Origin: Anolis carolinensis | Lineage: Eukaryota | NCBI RefSeq assembly: GCF_035594765.1 | Contig: NC_085842.1 | Location: 121,533,036 to 121,597,035, forward strand | Direction: 5' to 3' | Length of the DNA stretch: 64,000 nt | Shown here: positions 1,499 through 61,946 of the stretch, piece after piece | Position numbering within the stretch: the first letter of the stretch is position 1 | Layout: every line of letters begins with the position of its first letter | Program-made: the position numbers and the translations under genes | Notes under the pieces: generated by a model | Databases searched by the model: none | The model's input: the letters and a program-made list of their open reading frames with translations, nothing else | Told to the model about the DNA's origin: nothing

Positions 1499-1503
<5 letters not shown>

Positions 1504-1569
1504 ATGAATATTTTGTAAATCAAGGTTCGTTCAACAATTGCCCATTCGCTTTCTGGGACACCCTATATG

Positions 1570-2700
<1,131 letters not shown>

Positions 2701-2974
2701 TTGGGCTGAGCGTTGTTTGTTGGGAAGGACCTCACTTTTTGATGTGTCGTCGAAGGCTTTCATGGCCGGAATCACTGAGTTGCTGTGAGTTTTCTGCGCT
2801 GTATGACCACGTTCCAGAAGCATTATCTCCTGACCTTTCGCCCGCATCTATGGTAGGCATCCTCAGAGGTTGTGAGGTCTAGGCAAAGTGGAGTTTATAT
2901 ATCTGTGGAAAGTGGGAGAAAGAACTCTTGTCTGTTGGAGGCAAGTGTTAATGTAGCAATTGGCCACATTTAAT

Positions 2975-20656: not shown

Positions 20657-21400
20657 ATGGCAGTACAGAATTCAAAATGACTATGAAATCTACTTAGTGG
20701 GTTGAATCCACATTTAAATGTGTTTGGCACAGCTTATTTTCTTCCCTTTTTGTTTTCTAAAAATGTTATAAGATTGGCCAGGGAGCCTTCTTTAACTCTT
20801 GGAAAGTGCTTCTGTTTGATATTTAGAGAAGTCCTACCCACACAATCCCGTTTGACTGGTCCCCCAACTCACATTGTAGCATTTTCAGGAGTCTGCCATT
20901 GTGGCAAGCTAAGCTAAACAAAAAGAGCAATCACAAACACAAAAAATGAAAACAACTTTTCTTTTTATTACTTAAAATTCTTCTACATTTGTAAATACAG
21001 TTCTTTTTGTCACAAGTCATCTGGAATATATTAGTTGCTCTATTTAATGACCCTTCACAATCATGTTGACATCCAGTGCAGTCTTTTTCCTACAATAAAA
21101 CACAGGGCTTATCTTAAGGATTCTCCTCATAACATTTCCAGCCATAAAACACACTCGTTGCATTGTTTAGTAAGATCATTGTTTTTCTGCATTTGATTAG
21201 AACGTTGAACTAAATGGCAAGTTGCAGTAAAACTTTTTGTTTTCTATATGCGACGTGCTATGCCTTTATTGGTAGGGAAATAGCTGCAGATTGAGATTTT
21301 CCCAACCTTTCAAAGGTTTTGAGTTCTGCTTACTATGACCACATATTGCAAGATCAATTCATGTGTAGCTTGCTAGAAAGCTTTGGGAAAATGTAGAGCT

Positions 21401-22340
21401 TGTCACGACCCGGCTGCAGGGCACCAATAACCATACACAGAGGCCAGAATCTATCTAATATCTTTATTGAAGGAGTATATAAAGTTAATAAAAACAAGTG
21501 TAGAAAATAGTCCAGAATTAGACCTTTCAGGAAAGGTCAAAATTAGTCCAAAGAAACAATGTCCAATATGAAATATTAAGGTCCAAAGTTGTAATCCAAT
21601 AACCGAAACACTCACTTTGCCAGGCAAAGTGAGGGGAGATGACAAGGTCCTTTAGTCCAAGAACTTGAACGAGGCTAGGAAATAACTTGACTCTCGGAAA
21701 AACAAGGCTTGAATACAAGACAGCAAGGAACAAGGAACAAGAACAAGATCCGTGGTGTTTACTTGGCAAAATCCGGGAAACAAGGCAAGGCTGGGTCTTG
21801 GAAAGCAAGGCAAAATCCGTGGAAGAACAAGGCTGGAAAACGAAGGCTTGAATCAGGAACAAAGGCTTGGAAGCGGAGTAGCTGTCCACACACACTACTC
21901 CAGTTGCTGACGAATTGACTCCGCAAGATCCCTCCGGGAGCAAGGAACCTAAATAGGCCTTGTTTTCCCCACCAGAGAACACTTCTCTGGGGAACCAGAA
22001 CCGAAAGTCAATCTCTGTGTCCAGATGTATGACTCCCTAAAATTTCTCATGGGAACAGGCTTAATCATCTGAATGCTTTGCTGCTATTCTCAAACTCCTG
22101 CGATTAGCCTGTTGCACTCCTTTCTGCTGGAGAATGTAATTACGGCGCGAAAAAGGGGGAGAACTCGACTCCGGGCTTGTTTGGGAGATTTCTGGAAGAC
22201 AAACCTCCTGCAGGTGCAAAGGCTCAATTTCTGGCTGAAATGGTTCCCTTTCTGGCTGAAATGGAGGAAAACCCAAGTTCTCCTCTTCGTCAGTCACAAC
22301 AGCACTAGGAATGGGACTACAATGCCCATGAGTCATCACA
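21401..22340 (-). mobile_element. Solo LTR (940 bp), Gypsy-like, 5-bp TSD
   Basis: tgtcacg...catcaca termini. TSD gagct at 21396-21400 and 22341-22345. AATAAA on the minus strand near 21465. Short acidic ORF at the LTR 5' end. Confidence 0.88.
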
Positions 22341-23529
22341 GAGCTGCACTTACAAAAATGGTTCACTAGCACTCAACTCTGATGCCAATTTTTACCTGAG
22401 GAAGAAAGGGAGTTGGGACATTTGACCCTGAAAACTGTTTGCAGGCTGGAGCTCCACAAAAGCCTGTCTCCCTCACATACACATACACACCAGTGGTGTC
22501 CCATATGTGCAAATGAGTTAATATTTTGTCACACATGGAGGAGTGAAACTTGACAGCACTGACTTAGTTTGGATAAATTTAAAAGTAAAGGATCTCTTTG
22601 TCCTTCAGGGAGGTTTTGGATTAAACAATGAGCCCAGGAAATTTGTTTTTATTTCCTTCTTGTTCGTTTTACTTGGGTCTCCTTTTGCATAGTTTGTGCG
22701 CAGGTATCCGTCATCTTCCTTTTCATATTCACTGATCCACAAACCCCTCCCTTCTTTGGTGGTCCACTTACCTTTTGATGGCTGACAGCCAGCTTGATGG
22801 TCCCTTTCCACTTCACCATAACCCACCCCACATTACTTGGTGTCCTGTTGGTTTGCTATCACCATAATTCTGTCCTGGAACACTCTCACAATGCACTTTT
22901 GATTGAAAACACTTTGAAACATTTCAGCTGAAACCACATGAGCACATAACCAGGGGTATACTTGGTTCAGGTTTCTTCTGCAGTAGTGGGTGTTTCATAT
23001 ATAATAATTTTAACAGCATAACATGTTTAATTGTTTTTAAAAATTGAATAGTTTCTTTTAATATGATTGTATTGTTTCAAATGGCATGGTTTCATAGTAA
23101 TTTGTAGCTGCTTTCATTGGTAACTCCCCAGCAGGATTCAAGAGTGGTAGCTTCTCTGCTATGTACAACTCTGATCTGGAATGAGATGGGAAAACAGCGA
23201 TTAAATACACATTTGCAAATACTTTTACACATATTAATAGTATTAAAAGAGATAGCTATGTTCAGACCAATGTAATCATAAAGGAATCTAGTAACACCTT
23301 TGAGACAAACAGAAAAAAGATGTTTCTGATAGCATCATCACCATCATCATAGGTCTTCCAGAAGTAGAGTCTTTGCGGTAGGTCTGTAAGTGACTGTAGA
23401 GACCTGTTCTGAATCCACATGGTCTATCGTAGTAAGGATATAGCTTTCAGATGGAAGGCGGTCACAACAAGGGTTTACTTGACACACCTTCCACTTGGCA
23501 TGTTTCTCCCTTTTGCTCCATCGTTGTGT

Positions 23530-30080: not shown

Positions 30081-30952
30081 ATTACTTTTCATTTTGAATT
30101 TCAAATTGAACATAAGAGCAGAAACACTAGATTAAGGTGACAATGGGTATGATTTGATTTGATCCTGACCTGTTGTAGGAACATCCTGTTTCATAAAGCT
30201 GTTTGTATTTGAGGGAGTTGCCATTCTTTTGTGGGCAGAACTGCTGTCCTCATGTGCACTTAGCAACCCGAATGTATAATTTAAAAAATCCAACAACCTT
30301 CATTAGAACACATAGATCCAGCAACAGAGAGACTCTCCTAACTGTTTTCAAGTCTTGAATCCAATACATTGTTCTGTAAAGTGCTTATCTGTTCTGTATG
30401 TTCTTAAAAGTAAAGGATTGGATCTGGATATAGACAGAGACAACGAAGTTGGCAGAAGCAAGACATCCCAAGTCCCTGTCTCACAGTTCCATCACACACA
30501 CACACACACACCACCACCACCACCACCAATATAAATTATACAGAGCAATAAGAGACTTTTGCATCACACATGGAAAGTGAATTTGATGACTTTTTAGGAA
30601 TTCCCCTAATCCTAACCTCATTATGCACAGCCATCTTCCACTCAGGAGGGTTCCTCAGCTTCAGTATTTGGGATTGTGGGAAAGAGAAGACAGGGAGGTC
30701 TCCCTCTTTCAGCCCAATTTAATGTGCCTAAGTCGGGATTTAATTCAATTACCAGTTAGAGAACCCCCAGTGGTACAGCGGGTTAAACGGCAGAGCTGCT
30801 GAACTTGCGGACCGAAAGGTTGCGGTTTGAATCCGGGCAGCGGAGTAAGCTCCTGCTATCAACTCCAGCTTCTGCCAACCTAGCAGTTCGAAAACATGCA
30901 AATGTGAGTAGATCAATAGGTACTGCTCCAACGGGAAGGTAACGGCACTCCA

Positions 30953-33897
30953 AACGGAGGGCTGCACAAACACAGCAAGGACCAAGTACAGAGAGCACAA
31001 TAATCCCAAATAAACAGTTCGAGGGGAGGTCACAGGGGCTTACATGTCTTTACACTAATGCTCAGAGCATGGGAAATAAGCAAGACGAACTCCAACTCCT
31101 AGCACAGCACCACACATACGATGTCATAGGCATCACTGAAACCTGGTGGGATGACTCCCATCACTGGAATTTAACCATTGAGGGCTATAACCTCTTTCAC
31201 AGAAATAGAACAAAGGGGAGAGGAGGGGGAGTAGCTTTATATGTCAAAAACAGTTACGTTGCAGAAGAAATGCAAGACTGTAATCCGGGAAACCAGCTTG
31301 AAAGCATCTGGATAAGAATCAAGGGAACCGGGACTCAAAAAGATCTTGTCGTGGGTGTCTACTACAGACCTCCGAGTCAGGATGAAGGACTTGATGAAGC
31401 CTTCTGTCAACAGCTGACCAAACAGGCACAAAGAAGAGATATAGTAGTCATGGGCGATTTCAATTATCCCGATATCTGCTGGAAAACAAACTCAGCCAAG
31501 AGTACAAAGTCCAACAAATTCCTCACTTGCCTTGCAGATAATTTTATGGTCCAGAAGGTAGAAGAGGCAACAAGGGGATCAGCAACTCTTGATCTAATCT
31601 TAACAAATGTGGAAGACCTGATCAATACAGTTGAAGTGGTTGGATCCTTAGGGGCAAGTGACCATGTGCTCCTGCAGTTTGCAATACAAAGGAATGCTGA
31701 AACTAAGACAAGTCAAACACGCATTCTGGACTTTAAGAGAGCTGACTTCCAAAAAATGAAGGAATTACTGAGCGGCATTCCATGGACGCCGATATTAAAA
31801 AACAAGGGAGTTAAGGATGGATGGGAGTTTTTCAAAAGTGAAATACTCAAGGCGCAAATGCAAACAGTGCCAACAAAGAAGAAAAATAAGACAAGTGCAA
31901 AGAAGCCAGAATGGATGTCCAAAGAACTTCTAACTGAGCTAAAGCTCAAAAGTGACATGCACAAGAAGTGGAAAAGGGGAGAAATCACCAAAGAAGAATT
32001 CAAACGTATAGCCAACACCTGTAGGGAAAAGGTTCGCAAGGCTAAAGCGCAAAATGAGCTCAGGCTTGCCAGGGACATAAAAAACAACAAAAAAGGCTTT
32101 TTTGCTTACGTTGGTAGAAAAAGGAAGAAAAAGGAGGCGATAGGGCCATTGCAAGGAGAAGATGGGGTGATGGCGACAGGGGACAGGGAAAAGGCAGAAC
32201 TACTTAATGCCTTCTTTGCCTCGGTCTTCTCAGAAAAAGAAAGCCATCTTCAACCTCAGCAACACGGAATGGACGAAGGATTGGGGGAAATCCAACCCCA
32301 AATAGGGAAACAAGTTGTCCAGGAACACTTGGCCTCTCTAAACGAATTCAAGTCCCCAGGGCCAGATCAGCTACACCCAAGAGTACTGAAGGAACTAGCG
32401 GAAGTTATTTCAGAACCACTGGCAATTATCTTCGAGAGTTCTTGGAGAACGGGAGAAGTCCCAGCAGATTGGAGGAGGGCGAATGTGGTCCCTATCTTCA
32501 AGAAGGGAAAAAAGAACGACCCAAACAATTACCGTCCGGTCAGCCTCACATCAATACCAGGCAAAATTCTGGAAAAGATCATTAAGGAAGTGGTCTGCGA
32601 ACACTTAGAAACAAATGCGGTCATTGCTAATAGTCAACACGGATTTACCAAAAACAAGTCATGCCAGACTAATCTGATCTCTTTTTTCGATAGAGTTACG
32701 AGTTGGGTCGATACAGGGAATGCTGTGGATGTAGCGTACCTGGATTTCAGTAAGGCCTTCGACAAAGTCCCCCACGACCTTCTGGCAAACAAACTAGTAA
32801 AATGTGGGCTAGACAAAACTACGGTTAGGTGGATCTGTAATTGGCTAAGCGAACGAATCCAAAGGGTGCTCACCAATGCGTCGTCTTCATCATGGAAAGA
32901 AGTGACAAGTGGAGTGCCGCAGGGCTCCGTCCTGGGCCCGGTTCTGTTCAACATCTTTATTAACGACTTAGACGAAGGGTTAGAAGGCACGATCATCAAG
33001 TTTGCAGACGACACAAAACTGGGAGGGATAGCTAACACTCCAGAAGACAGGAGCAGAATTCAAAACGATCTTGACAGACTAGAGAGATGGGCCAAAACTA
33101 ACAAAATGAAGTTCAACAGGGACAAATGCAAGATACTTCACTTCGGCAGAAAAAATGGAAATCAAAGATACAGAATGGGGGACGCCTGGCTTGACAGCAG
33201 TGTGTGCGAAAAAGACCTTGGAGTCCTCGTGGACAACAAGTTAAACATGAGCCAACAATGTGATGCGGCTGCTAAAAAAGCCAATGGGATTCTGGCCTGC
33301 ATCAATAGGGGAATAGCGTCTAGATCCAGGGAAGTTATGCTCCCCCTCTATTCTGCCTTGGTCAGACCACACCTGGAATACTGTGTCCAATTTTGGGCAC
33401 CACAGTTGAAGGGAGATGTTGACAAGCTGGAAAGCGTCCAGAGGAGGGCGACTAAAATGATTAAGGGTCTGGAGAACAAGCCCTATGAGGAGCGGCTTAA
33501 AGAGCTGGGCATGTTTAGCCTGCAGAAGAGAAGGCTGAGAGGAGACATGATAGCCATGTACAAATATGTGAAGGGAAGTCATAGGGAAGAGGGAGCAAGC
33601 TTGTTTTCTGCTGCCCTGCAGACTAGGACACGGAACAATGGCTTCAAACTACAGGAAAGGAGATTCCACCTGAACATCAGGAAGAACTTCCTCACTGTGA
33701 GAGCTGTTCGACAGTGGAACTCTCTCCCCGGGGCCGTGGTGGAGGCTCCTTCCTTGGAGGCTTTTAAGCAGAGGCTGGATGGCCATCTGTCGGGGGTGCT
33801 TTGAATGCGATTTCCTGCTTCTTAGCAGGGGGTTGGACTAGATGGCCCATGTGGTCTCTTCCAACTCTACTATTCTATGATTCTATGATTCTATGAT
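30953..33897 (+). mobile_element. CR1 LINE, 5'-truncated just upstream of the ORF2 domains, young
   Basis: Intact ORF2, 3'UTR, (TTCTATGA)n tail, and short tcca duplication at the insertion site. Confidence 0.95.
31069..33804 (+). CDS. CR1 ORF2: APE endonuclease and reverse transcriptase (911 aa from the first ATG)
   Basis: Endonuclease motifs ITETWW, GVYYRPP, MGDFN and SDH. RT motifs [19 protein letters not shown] and FADDTK. No stop codons. Confidence 0.95.
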
Positions 33898-39098: not shown

Positions 39099-39860
<762 letters not shown>

Positions 39861-46668: not shown

Positions 46669-48291
<1,623 letters not shown>

Positions 48292-56087: not shown

Positions 56088-57180
56088 CAATGTCTTTCTG
56101 AGCAGTAGATTCTGCAGATTAATTTGCTATAGGGTTAAAGTTAGTCCATCTCCACAATTTCTAAGACTTTTGTCATTGGTGTAACTTGTTGTTTCCACAA
56201 TTTTGCATATTCAATTTTTGCTGCTGTTATCATGTAGAAAAAGATTCTTTTTTTGGTGCCTTGGTATCTGCTTATCTAATAATCCTAATAAAAAGATTCT
56301 CATTTCAATGTTATTTCCATTTCATTATGCATTTTTATATAGGAATCTTTAATCTTTGGACAGGCCCACCATATCTGGTAAAAGGTTCCTTTCTTCTGTT
56401 TACACTTGCGACACAAGTCCGAACTTTTATATATTTTTGTGAGTTTTTGGGGGGTTATATACCATCTATAAATCATTTTGTAAAAGTTCTCTTTTATGGT
56501 ATAACATCTTGTAAATTGGATTTTTTTCTTCCAGACTTGTTCCCATTCTTCTAGGTTTATTGCTCATTCTATATTTTTTGTCAATTGAATCATGGGTTCC
56601 TTTTCCTGTTTGTCCATTGTAATTTATATATTTTCCTGATTTCTTTGGTTTTTATCTGCAATAATAAATTTCATTGATTCTTCAGCTCTTGTATTCCCTT
56701 TTTATTATCTAATCGCCATCTCTGTTGTAGTTGAATCTTCTTTTTGTAACTCTTGTAATTTTACTGTTCCTTTTTCTAATAATTGTTTGTAAGCCAAATG
56801 TTTTCTCCCAGCTGTTCTTAATTGTGGAGATGCCTCTTGTGGTTTAGTTTACTCAGGTATTTCTCTGTAGATGACTTTCTTATATTCATTTCAAACTCTG
56901 AGTAGTGAATTTCTTATCTTATGTTTCTTAAAATTGGAATCTACTTTCATTTTATCATAGATTAAAATATTCATATTTTAAGTCCAATCCTTCTAGATAA
57001 AGTAGTATTTTTATTTAAAAAATCCATTATTTTATTCAAATCCAGGCTGCTGCCTCATAATATAGTCCCAAATTAGATAATGCCATTCCACCTCTTTCTC
57101 TTTAGTCTTGCAAATTCTAGGTTTTTGTTTTTCCAAATGAATTTTGTCAGTTCTTTATTCCAAACTTGAAAAAGCTATTC

Positions 57181-58846
57181 TGTTATATCCCAGCTACCTT
57201 TGGCCCCTGTACCTGACCCTGGGTTTGCCTTTGACCAGGATGAAGAATATGTTGATATTTCTCCAACTCAGCAAGACCCGATGAATTTGCAGCTGCCACT
57301 TGTTGACGATACACAGCCAGCTCTAATTGAAAGGGAGAGTGTTGTGGATAACTCTACTCCCTTGCCAGATGTCTCTAGCTCACCGGAGTCTGTGTCCTTC
57401 AACCGGAGAGAGTATCTAAATAAGCAGAGATCTGAGAAACAAGCACGGAGGAGAAGTGCCCGCTTGGCTGAGCATGGAGACTCTCTCTAGAAGCCTTTCC
57501 CTTGGGAACTTTGGGGAGGAAGGCCCCCTTTTTTGCGGGGAGACTCTGCACTTCAATAAAAGTTTCTATGCTCTAGGCGATTTACAAGATAAAATTGTAA
57601 AGGATAAAAATACATACATACAAATATTGATAAAATTAACATAGATTAAAAGCTCTAGTAAAGAGCCAGGTCTTGAGTGCTAGGGTAAAAGCCCCTAACT
57701 CACGCATGGCTCTCATATAGGGTGGCAAGGCATTCCATAAGGCAGGGGCAGAAATAGAAAAAGCTCTGCATCTGGTCCTTTCCAAGTGCACTTCTCTAGG
57801 ACCCGGTACATAAAGTAAGTCTCGTTGGGATGGTCGTTGCGACCTCCGATGATGGGAGAAGGAGAGACGGTCCCTAAGGTACGATGGGCCCTGGCAGTAA
57901 AGAGTTTTAAAGGTCAGAACTAGCATCTTATATAGACCACGGTAATCAGTTGGAAGCCAATGCAGATGCTGCAGCACTGGTGTTATGTGGCATTTCATGC
58001 GTGTTCTTGTGAGTAGCCTGGCTGCCGCATTCTGAACAATACGGAGCTTTCGGGTCGTGGACATCGGAAAGCCAACATACAGGGCGTTGCAATAGTCCAG
58101 CCTAGATGTGACCGTGGCATGGATGACTGTTGCCAGAGCCTCATCAGATAGATAGGGTGCCAGTTGCCTCGCTTGTCATAGGTGGAAAAAGGCCTGTTTG
58201 CTGGCAGCAGCGACTTGAGCTTCCATTGTCAGCTGCGAATCTAAAGCGACACCCAGGCTCTTAACAGTAGGCGAAGGAGATAGGGCAGCACCATTGAAGG
58301 TGGGTAGCAAGTGGGTCAGACCAGTCGAGCGGCCATGCCAGAGAATCTCAGTCTTCGCTGGCTTCACCTTCAGTCTACTAGCTCGTAGCCAGTTCGACAG
58401 AGCCTCCAGACATAACGTGAAATTGTCTGGTATTGACGTTGCTCCAGGCTCCAAGCACAGAAGGAGTTGAGTGTCGTCGGATTTAAGTCTACTTTCCTGT
58501 CTTTTCATGAACCAAGATTTATTTCCATTATCTCATGTTTCTGCCTTGCTTCTAAGAACTATTCTTGAACATTTGGACCTTGATCATGTGCCTAGCTTGC
58601 TGACTTAATTCCCCACTCAAAGGCTATCATCAGTTTGAGTGTGTTTCGGTTCCCGGACATTGGACTCTAATACTGGACATATTCCTTGACATTTCTGGAC
58701 TATCTTACACCTTTTCTTAAAAGGCTATTGTTTGCTCAACTTTTCCACCATTTCATTTTTGGATTATTATTTGCTTTAATAAAGATATTAAAAGATTATT
58801 GGTCTCTGTGTCAGTTTTCAGTGCTCTCGCTGCCTGGACTACAACA
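57181..58846 (+). mobile_element. Solo LTR, Gypsy-like, 5-bp TSD, interrupted by L2
   Basis: tgttata...tacaaca termini. TSD tattc at 57176-57180 and 58847-58851. The AATAAA-containing 3' region resembles the LTR at 21401. Confidence 0.85.
57570..58478 (-). mobile_element. L2 LINE 3' fragment (RT C-terminus)
   Basis: DDTQLL...KTEILW...VKSLGVALDSQL and VQNAAARLLT...HITPVLQHLHWLP...AFSISAPALWNALP. Boundaries approximate. Confidence 0.88.
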
Positions 58847-59239
58847 TATTCTGTAGACACAATCCGTAATGTTTGGAATAAATATACTACCTATAGTATG
58901 TTCATTTTGATTGTCAATATTCTGTCCAATAAAGATAACTCTAGTTTGTACCATCTTTATAAGTCTTTTTGTATCTCTTTCCACATTTTTCATAATTGTT
59001 TTTGAAAGAGTCCGAACTGTTGTTTGCCAAATAAATTCCCAAGTATTTTCTTTTCTTTACTGTATCTATTTTTACCTCTTGTGACTGTTTCCTGATTCTT
59101 CTTGCTCATGTTATATGTCATACATGTCTTTTCTCTGTTTATAGATAAGACCATGACTTTTCCAAATTCCTTAATTATTTCTGGAATCTTTGGTATATTC
59201 TTTGAAGGATTATGAATAAATATCACTATATTGTCTGTT

Positions 59240-61946
59240 GTGTGGTGGTTTAAGCATTGGACTATGACCGAAGGCCTGAGTTTGCATCCCAGTTCAGCCA
59301 TGGAAGCCCACTGGATGACATTGACAACTCACACATTTCAGCATCAGTGGCAGGTGAAGACCCCATCTGAACAAATCTTGCTGACAAAACTCTATGATAG
59401 GTTTGCATTACGGTTGAGATAAGTCTGAAATGACTTGAAGGTACACAGCAACAGCTGAGGTGCAGATCAGATTTGCTGCAATTGGGACATAGGAGGATTA
59501 TTTTTTTACCTCTCACTCATGAGAGAGACTGCTATGACCACAAAAAAGAACTCCTCTTGTAATTCATAAAGTTGCCATAAGTTGTTCACTTTGTTTCTGT
59601 AGGTGGATTTTTTTTCTTGTCCTTATAGAATCATAGAATCATAGAATCATAGAATAGTAGAGTTGGAAGAGACCACATGGGCCATCTAGTCCAACCCCCT
59701 GCTAAGAAGCAGGAAATCACATTCAAAGCACCCCCGACAGATGGCCATCCAGCCTCTGCTTAAAAGCCTCCAAGGAAGGAGCCTCCACCATGGCCCCGGG
59801 GAGAGAGTTCCACTGTCGAACAGCTCTCACAGTGAGGAAGTTCTTCCTGATGTTCAGGTGGAATCTCCTTTCCTGTAGTTTGAAGCCATTGTTCCGTGTC
59901 CTAGTCTGCAGGGCAGCAGAAAACAACCTTGCTCCCTCCTCCCTTTGACTTCCCTTCACGTATTTGTACATGGCTATCATGTCTCCTCTCAGCCTTCTCT
60001 TCTGCAGGCTAAACATGCCCAGCTCTTTAAGCCGCTCCTCATAGGGCTTGTTCTCCAGACCCTTAATCATTTTAGTCGCCCTCCTCTGGACGCTTTCCAG
60101 CTTGTCAACATCTCCCTTCAACTGTGGTGCCCAAAATTGGACACAGTATTCCAGGTGTGGTCTGACCAAGGCAGAATAGAGGGGGAGCATAACTTCCCTG
60201 GATCTAGACACTATTCCCCTATTGATGCAGGCCAGAATCCCATGGCTTTTTTAGCAGCCGCATCACATTGTTGGCTCATGTTTAACTTGTTGTCCACGAG
60301 GACTCCAAGGTCTTTTTCGCACACACTGCTGTCAAGCCAGGCGTCCCCCATTCTGTATCTTTGATTTCCATTTTTTCTGCCGAAGTGAAGTATCTTGCAT
60401 TTGTCCCTGTTGAACTTCATTTTGTTAGTTTTGGCCCATCTCTCTAGTCTGTCAAGATCGTTTTGAATTCTGCTCCTGTCTTCTGGAGTGTTAGCTATCC
60501 CTCCCAGTTTTGTGTCGTCTGCAAACTTGATGATCGTGCCTTCTAACCCTTCGTCTAAGTCGTTAATAAAGATGTTGAACAGAACTGGGCCCAGGACGGA
60601 GCCCTGCGGCACTCCACTTGTCACTTCTTTCCATGATGAAGACGACGCATTGGTGAGCACCCTTTGGGTTCGTTCGCTTAGCCAATTACAGATCCACCTA
60701 ACCGTAGTTTTGTCTAGCCCACATTTTACTAGTTTGTTTGCCAGAAGGTCGTGGGGGACTTTGTCGAAGGCCTTACTGAAATCCAGGTACGCTACATCCA
60801 CAGCATTCCCTGTATCGACCCAACTCGTAACTCTATCGAAAAAAGAGATCAGATTAGTCTGGCATGACTTGTTTTTGGTAAATCCGTGTTGACTATTAGC
60901 AATGACCGCATTTGTTTCTAAGTGTTCGCAGACCACTTCCTTAATGATCTTTTCCAGAATTTTGCCTGGTATTGATGTGAGGCTGACTGGACGGTAATTG
61001 TTTGGGTCGTTCTTTTTTCCCTTCTTGAAGATAGGGACCACATTCGCCCTCCTCCAATCTTGCTGGACAACTTGTTTCCCTATTTGGGGTTGGATTTCCC
61101 CCAATCCTTCGTCCATTCCGTGTTGCTGAGGTTGAAGATGGCTTTCTTTTTCTGAGAAGACCGAGGCAAAGAAGGCATTAAGTAGTTCTGCCTTTTCCCT
61201 GTCCCCTGTCGCCATCACCCCATCTTCTCCTTGCAATGGCCCTATCGCCTCCTTTTTCTTCCTTTTTCTACCAACGTAAGCAAAAAAGCCTTTTTTGTTG
61301 TTTTTTATGTCCCTGGCAAGCCTGAGCTCATTTTGCGCTTTAGCCTTGCGAACCTTTTCCCTACAGGTGTTGGCTATACGTTTGAATTCTTCTTTGGTGA
61401 TTTCTCCCCTTTTCCACTTCTTGTGCATTTCACTTTTGAGCTTTAGCTCAGTTAGAAGTTCTTTGGACATCCATTCTGGCTTCTTTGCACTTGTCTTATT
61501 TTTCTTCTTTGTTGGCACTGTTTGCATTTGCGCCTTGAGCATTTCACTTTTGAAAAACTCCCATCCATCCTTAACTCCCTTGTTTTTTAATATCGGCGTC
61601 CATGGAATGCCGCTCAGTAATATGTTGTAATCTGTCCCTGTTCTTGCCCTCCCTTCCCATTACCCAAATCCCAAAGACTGAGATGATGAATCCTTGACAG
61701 GCTGTGAGCATCTAGGAGAATCAGTCCTAAGGAAAGAGTGAGCTGAGATGAACTAAACATGTTACAAACGATTTTTACACATATGTGTGTTCAATCAGTG
61801 CAGACCAGGTCTAGTAAATGCAGTACTGAGATCCTCATAAATGTTATGAGTGTCCAAATAATGAATAGTACATATAGAAAGATGCTATGGAAAATACGTG
61901 TTCCTGGTGGGAGCGGGAGAGGTCGGTGGAATCATGACACAGGATG
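59240..61946 (+). repeat. Local duplication copy B, split by CR1
   Basis: 59240-59626 and 61621-61946 together match 53140-54062. Confidence 0.9.
59627..61621 (-). mobile_element. CR1 LINE, 5'-truncated, with internal deletion and frameshift
   Basis: Near-identical to 31765-33897. Net 141-bp deletion at about 61062, 1-bp deletion at about 60243, and (TTCTATGA)n tail. Confidence 0.95.

Follow-up and report, generated by a model that had tools for sequence, protein, structure and literature searches.

The 64,000-nt stretch of Anolis carolinensis DNA analyzed here (the window) contains the final coding exons of a teneurin gene, in which Pfam recognizes TEN_YD-shell, Teneurin_ABD and Tox-GHH, and two solo LTRs of different families, hereafter LTR A and LTR B, each flanked by a target duplication (Table 1). 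LTR A lies about 17 kb beyond the teneurin stop on the same strand, and LTR B is likely situated within a teneurin intron. The window also holds two LINE endonuclease/reverse transcriptase frames and a GC-rich segment, likely a CpG-island promoter, in which both strands have long open frames.

Table 1. Features of the window (positions from its first letter)
Feature	Position	Strand	Remarks
GC-rich segment, likely CpG-island promoter	~1500-2900		long open frames on both strands
Solo LTR, family A (940 bp), young Ty3/Gypsy chromovirus	21401..22340	-	TG..CA ends, AGCTC duplication
AGCTC target duplication of LTR A	22341-22345 and 21396-21400		5 bp, flanks
U3-encoded C-terminal 92 codons of pol/integrase plus stop, family A	22061..22339	-	codons 22339-22064
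Acidic Pro/Ser-rich linker, LTR A	22154..22339	-	62 aa: 11 D/E, 1 K/R, 19 P/S
Basic terminal block FxR..RRSxR[LI]A, LTR A	22064..22153	-	core RRSLRIA 22102-22082
TATA-like box (putative function)	21950..21955	-	LTR position 386, downstream of the frame; found in copy L043, identical letters in the window
10-nt complement of primer-binding site	21915..21924	-	LTR position 417; likely self-priming, likely R start
Second stop-free stretch, LTR A	21530-22036	-	169 codons, different frame
LINE endonuclease/RT frame	30943-33801	+	953 codons
Teneurin terminal coding exons	39102-39860 and 46669-48291	-
Solo LTR, family B (older)	57181..58846	+	TG..CA ends, TATTC duplication
TATTC target duplication of LTR B	57176-57180 and 58847-58851		5 bp, flanks
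U3-encoded C-terminal 102 codons of pol plus stop, family B	57182..57490	+	codons 57182-57487
Family B motif		+	F at 57398; RRSARLA 57449-57469
Foreign insert within LTR B, presumably LINE-like	57566..58477	.
LINE endonuclease/RT frame	60214-61659	-	482 codons

LTR A is 99.4–99.9% identical to the LTRs of eight full-length elements. The first-pass annotation was right to call LTR B a solo LTR but not in its length, as about 910 bp of foreign sequence, which we take to resemble a LINE, stands in place of about 120 bp, making the native LTR shorter than 1,666 bp. Neither the minus-strand frame of this insert (57639-58175) nor the second stop-free stretch of LTR A gave a Pfam match. Compared by blastn, the two LTRs share a single match with E < 0.01, which covers 39 nt at the 3' end.

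Both LTRs carry a frame that is open from base 2 and runs through an acidic linker into a basic terminal block. As the first-pass annotation had noticed, the two frames share a gap-free 24-mer in which 12 of 24 residues but only 34 of 72 nt are identical; the coordinates given there for the LTR A 24-mer are one base off (it occupies 22153-22082). By BLASTP, the A and B peptides are identical at 22 of 44 residues (pairwise E 3e-9). A six-frame translation of the window has exactly two instances of RRS.R[LIV], one of them in LTR A and the other in LTR B, and RRSxR[LI]A is expected 0.03 times per window (200 base shuffles). The last 30 residues of the tail include 7–9 Lys or Arg, and the tail of a subfamily, A2, reads RRSARIAA. 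Allowing E values up to 10, we found no Pfam family for any of nine tail peptides, and the motif block found no match among PDB sequences.

The TATA-like box and the complement of the primer-binding site both lie downstream of the frame in LTR A, the latter likely marking the start of R and likely serving self-priming, as in Tf1/sushi elements. By these landmarks, the coding frame of the LTR is located in U3. Because it lies upstream of the TATA-like box and of the probable transcription start, a promoter in the solo LTR would not transcribe it, and in both solo LTRs of the window the frame appears to be a passive leftover. LTR A has an ATG at base 5, inside its terminal TGTGATG, and the first-pass annotation had suggested that it could give rise to a 91-aa peptide. 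A peptide useful to the host might be imagined, given the teneurin gene ending upstream on the same strand and gene models elsewhere that extend into the tail. This idea is scarcely credible in light of the position of the frame relative to the promoter; moreover, the copy is so close to a young family that it bears no sign of co-option, and families B, B2 and C lack the ATG. As to expression, no RNA run was listed as containing the sequence, and contigs from 4 of 24 sequencing runs left the junctions unbridged at 31 letters. Several Anolis gene models (a RefSeq uncharacterized protein, a P-type ATPase and a LINE reverse transcriptase) contain or end in the LTR peptide, in frame, and are either annotation artifacts or exonized solo LTRs.

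Searching the same genome with LTR A DNA (40 scored matches), we recovered eight LTR pairs about 5.4 kb apart, all of them full-length copies of 6,352–6,354 bp with paired TG..CA LTRs, a polypurine tract and 5-bp duplications. The two LTRs of each copy differ at 0–4 positions, indicating that family A is very young. Its gag includes a CCHC knuckle, and its pol comprises protease, RT, RNase H, integrase, SH3 and a chromodomain; the chromodomain, which follows the integrase core (PF00385 at residues 1090–1138, 35 bits against a cut-off of 25.1), was missed in the first pass. Three aromatic cage residues, which we presume from the HP1 pattern to be F1090, W1111 and F1114, would place it with the type I, methyl-lysine-reading chromodomains. 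Type I is defined by three such aromatics in PMC3059260. Judged by their coding content, the family A and B elements are Ty3/Gypsy chromoviruses. In seven of the eight copies, a 1,256-codon frame extends across the polypurine tract to the stop in the LTR, with the tail in frame with the chromodomain; the eighth ends early.

Family B is mostly solo, with pol upstream of the LTR in 0 of 23 loci of one set and 1 of 40 of another. L049, considered as a full pair of B LTRs, had no pol upstream and was discarded. A search for the B LTR start preceded by a purine tract gave 0 matches, the actual junction being different. L082, the sole B copy found with a chromodomain, has that domain in frame with the U3 frame, and its motif has decayed. 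Using the chromodomain DNA of L082 as the query, such that presence of the motif was not a criterion, we took the 30 best of 40 scored matches, among them L082 itself, and found the motif downstream of the chromodomain, in some frame, in 28. The path from chromodomain to motif was uninterrupted in 13 of the 30 loci, and the rest have stops or frameshifts, with two truncated. In many of the broken copies, a frameshift within the G-rich polypurine tract, immediately ahead of the LTR, parts the tail from the chromodomain. We conclude from these reading frames that pol continues through the polypurine tract into the U3 region of the 3' LTR, as had been anticipated in the first pass, and that the tail follows the chromodomain.

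To gauge conservation, we clustered natural copies using an anchor that excludes RRS, obtaining 12 clusters. F1, R3, R18, R19, S20, R22 and A24 are invariant, and the block is free of indels, in 11 of these, with the twelfth consisting of a single frameshifted copy; four of the families were retrieved by tail similarity, which favors the motif, and the families retrieved by chromodomain DNA were not. Both CGN and AGR codons are used at the invariant arginines. Pairwise, synonymous sites are near saturation (pS 0.5–1.2 for most pairs). We then compared families B, B2 and C, using 33, 12 and 10 copies without net indels. For B versus C, net dN/dS was 0.16 for the motif block against 0.40 for the linker; B2 versus C, the other of the two deeper comparisons, gave 0.17 and 0.34, respectively. 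B versus B2 gave 0.38 overall, with a motif block value that was not significant (pN/pS 0.56, 95% 0.14–2.24). Shifted frames, used as a control, gave pN/pS of 0.99 and 1.69. Singletons among 18 B copies selected by DNA comprised 44 nonsynonymous and 19 synonymous changes, so the neutral baseline of the method is about 0.7 rather than 1. Pairwise values within families are biased through the motif filter, and we set aside a Fisher test (p 1e-5) that omits 35 multi-site nonsynonymous codons. On these codon comparisons, selection acts on the tail protein, as the first-pass annotation had proposed, most strongly on the end block, with the linker also under purifying selection.

Conservation could in principle reflect constraint on U3 at the DNA level, such as an enhancer or att site, with the tail a neutral by-product of read-through. 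U3 is regulatory DNA, and chromovirus pol of fish often runs about 20–45 residues past a GG[GS]SV junction (14 of 58), so that short read-through seems common. Such a reading is very improbable and largely refuted by the seven residues that are fixed despite near-saturated synonymous sites and two-step switches between arginine codons, by the low nucleotide identity of A and B over the 24-mer, and by the stops found in the other frames of the tail DNA.

To determine how widely the tail occurs, we searched protein collections. The nearest named proteins, UniRef entries for A. carolinensis "Gypsy retrotransposon integrase-like protein 1," already include the tail, and the tails of two UniRef Anolis entries match this genome at 100%. 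A profile of the 44-aa block run against 1.84 billion representatives gave eight matches, namely three Anolis proteins, one repeat protein (matched in the upstream part) and four unrelated proteins in which RRSxR[LI]A occurs in tandem, indicating that RRSxR[LI]A is by itself a common short motif. Metagenomic proteins with 3–5 such tandem repeats are, from their sequences, candidate multivalent acidic-patch binders. A profile search of longer proteins (7,991 candidates scored) gave nine matches, all from Anolis. We also searched with a profile of chromodomain plus tail, taking the best 120 of 636 matches. Among 142 non-Anolis chromodomain proteins compared, RRSxR[LI] is present in one, a pol of Podarcis muralis, and absent from the other 141, fish and amphibian relatives included, so chromoviruses can do without it. 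The Podarcis pol is 54% identical to A pol up to the junction, beyond which its tail is unalignable, consisting of an 80-aa linker (19 D/E, 0 K/R) followed by PRRSARL, without FxR and R11. Of the 15 members of its cluster, five show the linker and PRRSARL, one ends prematurely, and in nine no chromodomain anchor was obtained. We place the Podarcis LTR border provisionally, by the GDGVM/GDSVM junction alone in the protein. Of the 142 non-Anolis proteins, 36 terminate in SP[ED][YF], which, judged from protein alone, may be another conserved C-terminal motif encoded in an LTR.

The conserved core resembles known ligands of the H2A-H2B acidic patch. According to PMC12487698, HMGN proteins bind nucleosomes via RRSARLSA, and in Dsup the motif's first Arg meets H2B Q47 and its second Arg H2A E64, with the Ser placed at E61/E64 and the final Arg at E61/D90/E92; RRSARIAT of yeast Dot5 likewise binds the acidic patch, according to PMC13347269. 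A fold model of the window peptide with H2A and H2B of this genome scored 0.75, against 0.11 for the best control, a pass that may be memory of the HMGN2, Dsup and other arginine-anchor complexes already solved and that indicates likeness rather than binding. In the calibration set, which contained no peptides, 51 of 78 solved pairs and 2 of 108 mismatched ones reach the mark applied (for eukaryotes, 39 of 65 and 2 of 126). The runs share at least 65% of contacts, with partner pLDDT of at least 53, and used no alignment. Confident contacts are limited to peptide residues 29–39, with RRSxR modeled against H2A E61/E64/D90 and H2B Q47/E105/H109 (numbering without Met), and none involve FxR or R11. 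In the model, RRSxR is thus predicted to follow the Dsup/HMGN register on the acidic patch.

Taken together, the LTR frame is a selected C-terminal tail of a chromovirus integrase, and we think it probable that its RRSxR[LI]A sits on the H2A-H2B acidic patch and tethers the integration complex to nucleosomes. This prediction derives from conservation of the residues that matter in Dsup, HMGN and Dot5, in combination with the fold model. The tail would remain part of mature integrase, with the last Arg of RRSxR acting as the arginine anchor and the acidic linker of 60–80 aa providing reach. The chromodomain, engaging a methylated H3 tail, and the motif, engaging the acidic patch, could jointly read one or two nucleosomes, and docking on the nucleosome would precede and aid insertion of the element.

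Two other functions of the tail have to be weighed. The basic end could be a nuclear-localization signal or a DNA/RNA-binding patch whose likeness to HMGN is incidental, in keeping with its high Lys/Arg content, with the basic RGRPR tracts that fish relatives have after the chromodomain instead, and with FxR and R11, which the acidic-patch model leaves unexplained. A role of charge only would allow exchange between Arg and Lys, but R18, R19 and R22 are never Lys, S20, [LI]23 and A24 are fixed in 11 clusters, and the same RRSARL recurs in the unalignable Podarcis tail, making this function rather unlikely. The long low-complexity linker would also suit a tail that is cleaved off by protease to act as a separate acidic-patch tether, like MLV p12 or foamy virus Gag, and the spacing between F and RRS, constant at 17 residues, points to an element of larger size, perhaps a helix, such that the whole FxR..RRSxR block might bind another host protein. 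Gag-derived tethers of foamy virus and MLV employ an arginine anchor on the H2A-H2B acidic patch, as described in PMC11054761. We consider both variants distinctly improbable, having identified no cleavage site and given that Podarcis retains RRSARL alone of the block.

The Anolis elements share with other vertebrate Ty3/Gypsy chromoviruses (Sushi/Tf2-like, Metaviridae) a CCHC Gag, the order PR-RT-RH-IN-SH3-chromodomain, TG..CA LTRs and a 5-bp duplication, but add about 90–100 residues past the junction that end in RRSxR[LI]A. In plants, the 3' LTR of CRM group A elements likewise codes for a targeting motif (CR), per PMC3059260; the likeness considered here, including read-through of pol, is one of coding location, and whereas CR replaces the chromodomain in the plant elements, the lizard elements keep the chromodomain and add the motif. 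With HMGN, Dsup and Dot5, the tail has in common the RRSxR[LI] core with its conserved first, second and anchor Arg, and the contacts of the fold model, which may stem from solved complexes, fall in the Dsup register; it likely works as these HMGN-like motifs do. The full HMGN octapeptide RRSARLSA is matched at six of eight positions in B and five of eight in A, the second Ser being absent and position 7 being Ala in 11 of 11 clusters; moreover, the tail is fused to pol rather than standing alone and has no Pfam HMGN match, and the protein that bears it is not HMGN. In contrast to the Gag-derived tethers of foamy virus and MLV, the Anolis tail belongs to pol/integrase and has its coding sequence in the LTR. 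Searches of the openly available literature turned up no account of a retrotransposon integrase bearing this kind of motif, and the term "open reading frame" is absent from the available portion of an LTR-structure paper that covers the Sushi clade (PMC3601003).

The chromatin choice of vertebrate Ty3/Gypsy elements is poorly known, and a selected, LTR-encoded tail with a four-residue contact motif makes it testable with a short peptide. The finding would extend HMGN-like motifs, represented by HMGN, Dsup and Dot5, to mobile elements, paralleling both the LTR-encoded targeting module of plant CRM and retroviral Gag tethers, and U3 also serves as coding sequence in a vertebrate element. The wider proposition, that integrases of lizard chromoviruses carry a two-part nucleosome reader combining a methyl-lysine chromodomain with an LTR-encoded HMGN-type acidic-patch anchor, either retained or evolved anew in the iguanian and lacertid lineages, we regard as evenly balanced. 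If true, an HMGN-like anchor would here be seen for the first time on a retrotransposon integrase, and a ready-made chromatin-binding module would be dispersed over the genome in thousands of solo LTRs.
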